Virus record (IMG/VR): IMGVR_UViG_3300043449_002191
Coordinates: 1 to 64,000 of that record
Length of the DNA stretch: 64,000 bases
Reading direction: 5' to 3' (one strand)
Origin: a virus
Part shown: in pieces, positions 17,157-49,856 of the stretch
How positions within the stretch are numbered: the stretch's first letter is position 1
Layout of the letters: each line of letters starts with the position of its first letter
Translations under genes and position numbers: made by a program
Notes under the pieces: generated by a model
Told to the model about the DNA's origin: nothing
The model's input: the letters and a program-made list of their open reading frames with translations, nothing else
The model's database searches: none

Positions 17157-17387
17157 TCACATATCATCCAAAGGGGTTTGTTCTATAGCTTTTTTAGGAG
17201 TATCAACTAGCTCAAATGGGACTTCAATACCCTTAGTTTTTAAGAACTCTTCCAATCCTGAGATAATCAAAAAAACTTGATTATTACGACTATTGTCGTA
17301 TGGAAGTGCAATATGTTCATTAAAAACCGATTGTGCTGCATCTGATATTTTAATGATATCAGACATTGTGATAGCTAATTTACTCAT
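17157..17387 (-). CDS. Hypothetical protein
   Basis: AAGGA SD; part of the minus-strand operon. Confidence 0.6.
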   Translation of the reverse strand: MSKLAITMSDIIKISDAAQSVFNEHIALPYDNSRNNQVFLIISGLEEFLKTKGIEVPFELVDTPKKAIEQTPLDDM

Positions 17388-17405
17388 TTTGTATCCTTAT
17401 ATAAG

Positions 17406-17494
17406 ATCTTTAGGGCGGATTCGCACCGCCTGCTCGGTTATTAGCCGAACTTGCCACTTTTAAGGCCGCAGAGTTCCTACCTCTGTGCTAAAGA
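17406..17494 (-). ncRNA. Atypical tRNA-like RNA (AAT in anticodon-like loop, extra 5' arm)
   Basis: Acceptor TCTTTAG/CTAAAGA; T-arm GGCGG-TGCGAAT-CCGCC; arm GTTCGG-CTAATAA-CCGAGC; two further hairpins; no CCA. Confidence 0.7.
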
Positions 17495-17499
17495 AAGTT

Positions 17500-17790
17500 T
17501 TAAGCCACTTTTTTTATCTTTGCCTTAACATCTAATTTAACATAAGTAGACTTAGTAATCAAGTCTAATTCTGTACATTTTACAATCCCAACACGCTCTA
17601 ATAAAGTATCAGCTCCAACTACTCGATTTTGCTCGATTTCTTTAAGAATTACAGCAAAACCTTCTGTTTCCATAGAACCTAAAGCCTTCAAAGTCGAGGC
17701 TATCTCTTCTTTTTTAGTCTCCAAAAGCTTAATTTGATCTCGCAATTGCATATATTGTTCACACATTTCGTTTATTTGACTTAATTTCAT
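17500..17790 (-). CDS. Hypothetical early protein (N-terminal coiled coil)
   Basis: GGAGG SD and sigma70 promoter upstream. Confidence 0.65.
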   Translation of the reverse strand: MKLSQINEMCEQYMQLRDQIKLLETKKEEIASTLKALGSMETEGFAVILKEIEQNRVVGADTLLERVGIVKCTELDLITKSTYVKLDVKAKIKKVA

Positions 17791-17813: not shown

Positions 17814-17842
17814 AGGATATCAAGTAATACTTTAAAAGTCAA
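17814..17842 (-). promoter_or_regulatory. Sigma70-type promoter
   Basis: TTGACT-17 nt-TATCCT. Confidence 0.65.
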
Positions 17843-48979: not shown

Positions 48980-49058
48980 AGCGGAGTGGACTGGAAGTAG
49001 TGCCAGCTCAGGCTCATAACCTGAATTCATGGAGGTGCAAGTCCTCCCTCCGCAACCA
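48980..49058 (+). tRNA. tRNA-Met(CAT), probably initiator type
   Basis: AGCGGAG/CTCCGCA acceptor with 1:72 mismatch; TCAGG-CTCATAA-CCTGA; T-arm GGAGG-TGCAAGT-CCTCC; encoded CCA. Confidence 0.9.
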
Positions 49059-49385: not shown

Positions 49386-49398
49386 TTTGTATTATTTT

Positions 49399-49637
49399 GA
49401 GACCAAGGCGTGAAGTCGCTGTGGACGTAAAGATCGGTATAGCCATTAAAATTCGTGACAGGCACAATACCCCACTGGGACACGCAGAGAGAAGACAATA
49501 CTCGGAGCCGAATGCGAGGGTAATCGGTGGTGCCTCTTTCGTAAGGTTAACTTTTGCGTCCGGTGCGTAATAGCATAGGATAGCAGCCACTTGAACCTCA
49601 GTACGCTCATAGCCGTGGTAGCGTACGGCTGGTCTCG
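49399..49637 (+). ncRNA. Large tRNA-like structured RNA, copy 1
   Basis: GAGACCA/TGGTCTC closing stem; GCCGT-GGTAGCGT-ACGGC arm; GCTGTGGAC and CCACTGGGACACGCA blocks. Confidence 0.7.
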
Positions 49638-49654
49638 CTTTGTTTATTTTATAT

Positions 49655-49856
49655 GTGGTAGCGGCATGGAGAGCTGTGGACGATAGTGAAGTTGAAATAT
49701 GACCCAAACGAAATCCACTGGAGACACGCATGGAGAATACGGAAGCAGCGATTTACACTAACAGTGCAGGTATCTGAGGTGTATTTTTAGCGGAAGCAGA
49801 CCGACAGTCCGTAGGGGATACGACTATGGAGCCAGAGTAGCGACTGGCCTACCACG
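49655..49856 (+). ncRNA. Large tRNA-like structured RNA, copy 2
   Basis: GTGGTAG/CTACCAC closing stem; GCCAG-AGTAGCGA-CTGGC arm; GCTGTGGAC and CCACTGGAGACACGCA blocks. Confidence 0.7.

Follow-up and report, generated by a model that had tools for sequence, protein, structure and literature searches.

A tRNA-shaped RNA, very probably non-decoding, in an operon of Mx1-like phages

What is the 89-nt tRNA-like element in a protein operon of an Mx1-like phage, and can it read codons? The element lies in the first 64 kb of a complete phage contig of 157,341 bases, and this whole stretch of 64,000 nucleotides is referred to here as the window. The major capsid protein of the phage shows 54% identity to the protein of Myxococcus phage Mx1 and 81–83% to those of several IMG/VR contigs, and the freshwater metagenome with the best read match may be its source sample. 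The minus-strand operon that holds the element forms a short insertion between virion genes, and comprises in order the 96-aa ORF, the element, two 76-aa ORFs, the thymidylate synthase gene (thyA), a 285-aa ORF, and a Rrf2-type regulator. We searched for a function of the flanking proteins and could assign none. The original prediction for this locus was a rearranged tRNA with an additional arm 5′ of the D position and an AAU anticodon, possibly acting as a decoy or a processing signal.

The five helices, the sequence, and the strand were as first described. Reading the minus strand from 17494 to 17406, the acceptor is paired at 7/7 positions and encloses arms of 5, 3, 6, and 5 bp; a U follows it directly, and there is no CCA. 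The minimum free energy is −34.2 kcal/mol (z −2.9 with flanks, −3.9 without), none of 200 shuffles was equally stable, and helix pair probabilities are at least 0.99, except for the terminal pair (0.83). When 25 windows of 64 kb were shuffled locally, a five-arm descriptor gave a single comparable match, defined as four hairpins, closed, and no weaker than −25 kcal/mol. The fold is real. Default ARAGORN did not call the element, no Rfam family matched at gathering score or meaningful E-value in the window or seven homologous loci, and the Rfam tRNA model (RF00005) did not match the window copy at E ≤ 1. At an 85% threshold, at which shuffled genomes yield 6–14 calls each, ARAGORN reported a “possible pseudogene” tRNA-Leu(TAA). 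A cobalamin riboswitch, considered because of the T loop and a UAANA string, was discarded: Rfam gave no match and the closing acceptor stem does not suit it.

With acceptor, D, anticodon position, long variable arm, and T in normal order, the element is a class II tRNA body rather than a rearranged one. The supposed extra arm is the D arm itself, and the CU-AAU-AA loop, formerly read as an anticodon loop, caps the variable arm, which is separated from the T arm by a single base in the window copy. It is therefore extremely improbable that the third arm is the true anticodon arm of a rearranged tRNA, with AAU reading AUU: the loop does have 7 nt and the CU-NNN-AA pattern, but the same loop is a 6-nt NUWANA loop without a fixed triplet in 8/8 counterparts (described below), and two arms before the loop with 1 nt to the T arm are the geometry of a variable arm. 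A U-turn in a hexaloop of the NUWANA type would explain its anticodon-loop look. The AGGA thought to be exposed by the D-like loop is not kept either, since the D loops of the counterparts are 3–9 nt long and unrelated in sequence.

Table 1. Features of the element and its surroundings in the window, with the positions of counterparts and associated ORFs in related phages
Feature	Position	Strand	Remark
tRNA-shaped RNA, 89 nt, five-way junction, 7/5 acceptor branch, U73, no encoded CCA	17406..17494	-	
Acceptor stem, 5′ strand; pairs 7/7 with 17407-17413	17488..17494	-	
D-like arm, 5 bp, loop GUAGGAA	17469..17485	-	“Extra arm” of the original prediction
Anticodon-position arm, 3 bp and 8-nt loop	17453..17466	-	Preferred register
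Long variable arm, 6 bp; loop CUAAUAA at 17438-17444	17432..17450	-	Loop was the “anticodon” of the original prediction
T arm, 5 bp, loop UGCGAAU with G55	17414..17430	-	tRNA-Met of the genome likewise has G55
U-rich trailer (CUUAU) and ribosome-binding site of next ORF	17388..17405	-	
Upstream 96-aa ORF	17500..17790	-	Ends 5 nt before the RNA
Downstream 76-aa ORF	17157..17387	-	Its family has 92 representatives and marks this slot in relatives
Sigma-70-like promoter match (extended -10)	17814..17842	-	Consensus match only; head of operon through the RNA to thyA
Counterparts of the element	L162:10119, L173:12562, L182:11172, L187:1991, L191:534, L198:1810, L199:2039, L235:779		
Zinc-ribbon-like ORF	L173:12669-13004, L182:11290-11691, L198:1918-2253, L199:2170-2544, L235:887-1276		

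Counterparts could be found only by synteny, because blastn of the region against five related genomes returned only short chance matches; among 50,697 phage records, the window copy had no blastn match. Via the flanking proteins, we reached related Mx1-like phages and recovered from this operon slot eight counterparts, all distinct (Table 1). In six of them a homologue of the upstream 96-aa ORF ends 4–11 nt before the RNA. In L182 and L199 this ORF is absent, and a sigma-70-like promoter ends 4–5 nt before the RNA 5′ end. On one more contig, 113 nt separate the same two ORFs. There is one RNA copy per genome in G000, G001, G003, G004, and G006, and a search with our model R1 found no copy in Mx1, G002, G005, or G010. 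The flanking ORFs are present without the RNA in L202, L234, G002, and G010, and therefore the RNA is a separable unit that is not needed by those genes.

Pattern scans added no members, although they were strict and do not bound the size of the family. A Leu-type pattern gave 0 matches, a relaxed one gave three, all chance, and a T-arm pattern gave 91, mostly tmRNA-like 3′ ends and ordinary tRNAs. The family pattern recovered three known members and nothing else in viral contigs; its match L207 in metagenomes falls inside a coding gene, and its genome match L211 has no fold. In the other genome match, L212, which adjoins a tRNA and a YrlA-like match, the five-arm closure was not seen. This locus (L212:2670-3100, minus strand, on a 142-kb contig of a Bacteroidota MAG, just upstream of the YrlA-like match and the tRNA) holds a hairpin pair resembling the variable and T arms of the family at 32.7 bits, a score that is biased because the locus was selected by the search pattern. 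Short of a one-by-one comparison with the 10,006 candidate viral RNAs listed in PMC10690425, we found no description of the family in Rfam or in the literature searched.

Across all nine copies, 239/247 stem positions are paired (with registers set by hand), while the counterparts are only 36–52% identical to the window copy. In a MAFFT alignment of the 3′ half, comprising the variable and T arms, 95.7% of cells are paired, six of the nine pairs changed on both sides, and the pairing is far above that of shuffled and slid controls. As an out-of-sample check, L235, which had been located by its upstream protein, reached 45.8 bits against a model that did not include it. The stems are thus kept by compensatory change across the counterparts. 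In this respect the original idea of a tRNA-like RNA is borne out, though not that of a rearranged tRNA with an AAU anticodon.

The natural variation of the family shows which parts matter and which do not. RNA length ranges from 81 to 111 nt, and acceptor and T stem together span 12 positions in 9/9 copies, divided 7/5 in the window and 8/4 in the eight counterparts; the first acceptor pair is mismatched in four copies, all of the 8/4 form. After this branch come one base (N73) and a U-rich trailer, which begins with C in 7/9 copies, and CCA is encoded in none of the nine. Also kept are an RGU-C linker before the variable arm, a variable stem of 4–6 bp, and its NUWANA loop, whereas this linker-plus-loop motif was found in 0/15 class II tRNA calls among the loci examined. 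The version of the loop in L187, GUAAUA, also occurs in rRNA, as a hexaloop closed by a G.A pair (10.1101/354332). The T loop is closed by GG/CC in the family and is of the U54/A58 type in most copies. In contrast, the arm at the anticodon position is unconstrained, with stems of 2–10 bp and loops of 4–26 nt, C-rich ones among them and a GAAA tetraloop in L162. The D loop and T-loop positions 55–57 are free as well, the discriminator is A in three copies, U in four, and C and G in one each, and G18G19 and UUC are absent in most counterparts. Covariation between D loop and T loop, judged by eye, fits only about half of the copies.

Two further observations concern the loops. At the anticodon position, L173 (12586-12604) and L235 (803-821) carry the loop AGGAC on a 7-bp stem; GGA in a loop is the kind of motif bound by CsrA/RsmA proteins. 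Separately, C-rich loops in L182, L187, and L199 (at the anticodon position in L182 and L187) resemble an anti-Shine-Dalgarno sequence; the likeness could be chance, or these loops could pair with the ribosome-binding site further downstream.

The window copy, with its 7/5 branch and 7-nt variable loop, is the outlier of the family, being both the most tRNA-like and the most divergent. A 3′-half model built from the other eight copies, in whose alignment two rows were off by one in the T arm, did not find it, even with filters off at E ≤ 10, and for this reason its membership rests on position and architecture. It occupies the same slot as the rest of the family, directly behind a 96-aa ORF family member and ahead of one of the 76-aa ORF family. 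The match of its linker and loop to the family profile is weak (joint p ~0.02). Given the exact position and the shared architecture, it is quite probably a member. A low-depth contig of a related strain from the same sample shows 85% identity over 17230–17455 and then diverges exactly at the anticodon-position loop, continuing with a C-rich string. This divergence fits a free loop, but is a hint only, as it involves just ten letters at the contig end. Reads of the sequencing runs X2–X4 did not cover the element, and none of the read holders listed was an RNA run.

Regarding decoding, a divergent tRNA-Leu was initially favoured because TTA is the commonest Leu codon of the phage (38%) and because of the ARAGORN call. 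In the Leu register, the anticodon-position arm shows CU-UAA-AA at 17458–17464. However, this register needs a G.G and a G.U pair in the anticodon stem, leaves no position 26, and costs 3.8 kcal/mol (−29.7 versus −33.5 kcal/mol for the preferred fold), with a pair probability of 0.001 versus 0.995. The window copy lacks the canonical 5-bp anticodon stem with a 7-nt loop (it has 3 bp and 8 nt), and in the counterparts this arm varies over 2–10 bp and 4–26 nt. The window copy does have the 7/5 acceptor branch and the D-anticodon-variable-T order of class II tRNAs. The class II core bases (U8, A14, R15-Y48, G18G19, U55C56) are not kept, as it carries C8, A48, and G55. E. coli LeuRS needs A73, G18:U55, and G19-C56 (PMC9976931); this combination of A73 and D/T elbow pairs was not found, the window copy having U73 and only 3/9 copies A73. 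The weakness of the register, together with C8, A48, and U73, which speak against Leu identity, makes tRNA-Leu(UAA) an improbable reading.

The wider proposal that the window copy alone is a working, odd class II tRNA, be it tRNA-Leu(UAA), a species that, like some allo-tRNAs, is charged with serine but bears a Leu anticodon, or one whose 8-nt loop reads four bases, appears improbable to us on the same grounds, to which the missing RF00005 match adds. Codon usage and the low-threshold call favour it, as do the 7/5 branch, the GG in the D loop, C56, A58, and the fact that the leave-out model does not tie this copy to the family; moreover, Ser is inserted by allo-tRNAs that combine UAA anticodons with U73/G73 and a long variable arm (PMC5389517). 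Yet the window copy lies 5 nt behind the same ORF as its non-decoding counterparts, and the related-strain contig diverges exactly at the loop that would have to decode, for what its ten terminal letters suggest. At the level of the family, a 2-bp GAAA hairpin or a 26-nt loop at the anticodon position leaves no room for codon reading, and a freely varying discriminator argues against charging by one synthetase. Judged by sequence, the family cannot decode, as its anticodon-position arm varies freely, and the mimic is probably uncharged. We therefore regard the element as very likely a non-decoding tRNA-shaped RNA.

If it does not decode, it could have no function at all or act where it is transcribed. 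A decaying tRNA pseudogene or a chance fold would fit the “possible pseudogene” label, the weak anticodon-position arm, and the patchy presence among relatives, but is highly improbable in view of the fully paired acceptor, D, variable, and T stems of the window copy, the compensatory change across very divergent copies, and the single comparable match in the shuffled windows. A cis-acting role deserves more weight, even if we consider it rather unlikely. The element would then be tRNA-like punctuation or a 5′ stabiliser, an RNase P/Z cut or 5′ shielding would determine how much downstream mRNA (zinc-ribbon ORF, 76-aa ORF, and thyA) is present, and the excised RNA would have no job. In line with this, the element is always in the same operon, in L182 and L199 it lies where the transcript is predicted to begin, and a 12-position branch is what processing enzymes are known to measure. 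This role stays in contention mainly because a Shine-Dalgarno-like motif, weak in L191, follows within 6–13 nt of the 3′ end in 9/9 copies. However, tight packing is usual in phage genomes anyway, the same ORFs do without the RNA in the four cases given above, and cleavage needs the acceptor and T arms only, which leaves the conserved variable-arm loop unexplained.

On balance, we lean towards the view that the element encodes a tRNA mimic of Mx1-like phages that does not decode and acts in trans as a decoy or ligand. We infer trans action because the neighbouring genes do without the RNA elsewhere and because a processing signal needs no conserved variable-arm loop; the decoy or ligand job taken by itself is proposed tentatively. 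The RNA would be part of the minus-strand operon transcript or, in L182 and L199, be made from a promoter of its own. The constant 12-position branch, N73, and the U-rich trailer are the features recognised by RNase P, by RNase Z or E, and by the CCA-adding enzyme, and the RNA is therefore probably released by host tRNA-processing enzymes. RNase P, measuring the 12-bp branch, would generate the 5′ end, and RNase E/Z with exonucleases the 3′ end, perhaps with CCA addition; no gene for a CCA-adding enzyme was found in G000–G004, and the window phage itself has none. Given its variable discriminator and elbow bases, the released RNA would remain mostly uncharged and would never read codons. Its shape might then make it a decoy for, or a ligand of, a protein that binds class II tRNAs by their upper half and variable arm, the most plausible target being a host effector of defence that attacks tRNAs. 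We found no partner protein or defence link for the element, and the case for tRNA mimicry is weakened because most counterparts have no canonical D/T elbow.

Decoy and processing signal, both put forward in the original prediction, thus remain the leading ideas, but the RNA is unlikely to be an anticodon-nuclease decoy in the strict sense, as conservation is lowest in the anticodon-position loop, the part that was given up. A more specific scheme, which we find unlikely as it stands, is a dedicated class II mimic that has exchanged its anticodon arm for a free cargo hairpin, uses NUWANA as the docking site of a partner, and titrates in trans a defence effector recognising the upper half of Ser/Leu-type tRNAs. 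If that were true, the window copy, with its 7/5 branch and residual UAA string, would represent a near-ancestral state linking the family to tRNA-Leu.

Among the closest known RNAs are the (8/4) allo-tRNAs and inactive allo-tRNA-like species (Mukai et al, 2017, PMC5389517; reviewed in PMC7609411); some allo-tRNAs are unused in translation, and many are charged and decode in E. coli (PMC5389517). The family partly resembles them, in the 12-bp branch, which is of 8/4 or 9/3 form in allo-tRNAs and 8/4 here (in eight counterparts, four with a mismatched first pair), in the long variable arm (9/9 copies), in the extended D stem, in often having U73 (U73 or G73 in 5/9 copies, the window copy included), and in being missed by standard finders. 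It differs in the 7/5 branch of the window copy, in the variable discriminator, and in the unconstrained anticodon-position arm, whereas allo-tRNAs keep their anticodon stem and anticodon and lie near toxin-antitoxin genes or in tRNA clusters. Neither their long anticodon stem with an anticodon nor their Sec-like D stem with a tetraloop was found, the D loops being of 3–9 nt. Thus, the 8/4 branch of allo-tRNAs also occurs in RNAs without an anticodon. Arm order, length, long variable arm, and the U54/A58-type T loop of most copies are shared with class II tRNA-Leu/Ser (RF00005), and the window copy also has the CU-UAA-AA string of tRNA-Leu; the absence of a stable anticodon arm, C8, and the loss of Leu identity elements set it apart. 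Low-threshold tRNA calls in phages, here Leu-TAA, can therefore mislead.

Non-decoding tRNA look-alikes of phages are not new in themselves. In T4, rnaC and rnaD are stable tRNA-shaped RNAs of the tRNA region. These species 1 and 2 RNAs are listed as small phage non-coding RNAs of unknown function (PMC12685909), and such look-alikes have been known for decades without a function being assigned. We liken the element to them by description, not by sequence or structure; they measure ~138 and ~118 nt and belong to a tRNA cluster, while the element stands alone in a protein operon. The YrlA Y RNAs (RF02553; PMC4201824) are another non-decoding tRNA mimic found in phages, for which RNase P cleavage and receipt of CCA are possible. 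In contrast to the normal order of the element, they are permuted, with the T arm before the D arm, and have an acceptor closed by a loop and a Ro60-binding stem. RF02553 did not match the window or the seven homologous loci, and no TROVE (Ro60) gene was found in the five genomes G000–G004, in which a very divergent Ro60 could escape detection. On the features tested, the element is neither a canonical tRNA nor an allo-tRNA nor a YrlA RNA, and most likely it is one of a small family, so far undescribed, of class II tRNA mimics that do not decode. Being small (81–111 nt), single-copy, and outside a tRNA cluster, this family offers a compact test case for distinguishing a decoy from a processing signal.

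Other tRNA-shaped RNAs were seen along the way. Unrelated phage contigs (L117:3327, L129:4078, L133:8536, L226:1460-1549) hold serine-type tRNAs in which the T stem is short or the D stem extended (8/4-like), one of them with the anticodon ACT. The window phage itself encodes three longer tRNA-shaped elements of another type (window 49398-49637 and 49654-49856, plus strand; genome 72044-72234, minus strand), in which a tRNA-Leu-like D-arm frame carries unrelated inserts, an acceptor-like stem closes the structure, and the trailer is U-rich. Two of them are then followed by a ribosome-binding site, and 49398-49637 holds a GUAAUA hairpin loop like the variable loop of the family; model R1 did not match any of the three.

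The content of the island also varies. A zinc-ribbon-like ORF with two CxxC motifs lies 3′ of the RNA in most relatives (Table 1) and is missing in the window, and in other relatives thyA is swapped for thyX (Thy1) or a uracil-DNA glycosylase-like gene is present. In Mx1 (L213:10220-18172, OR576727.2), a large tRNA cluster directly behind the tail tube gene takes the slot that the minus-strand island with the element occupies in the window phage, and a TROVE (Ro60) gene and a peptidyl-tRNA hydrolase gene are found further on. The only standard tRNA of the window genome is a Met(CAT) tRNA (window 48980-49058, plus strand), whose 5′ end directly follows the stop codon of a 2190-aa ORF. Its CCA is encoded, its first pair is A.A (initiator-like), its D arm is unusual, and its T loop carries G55.
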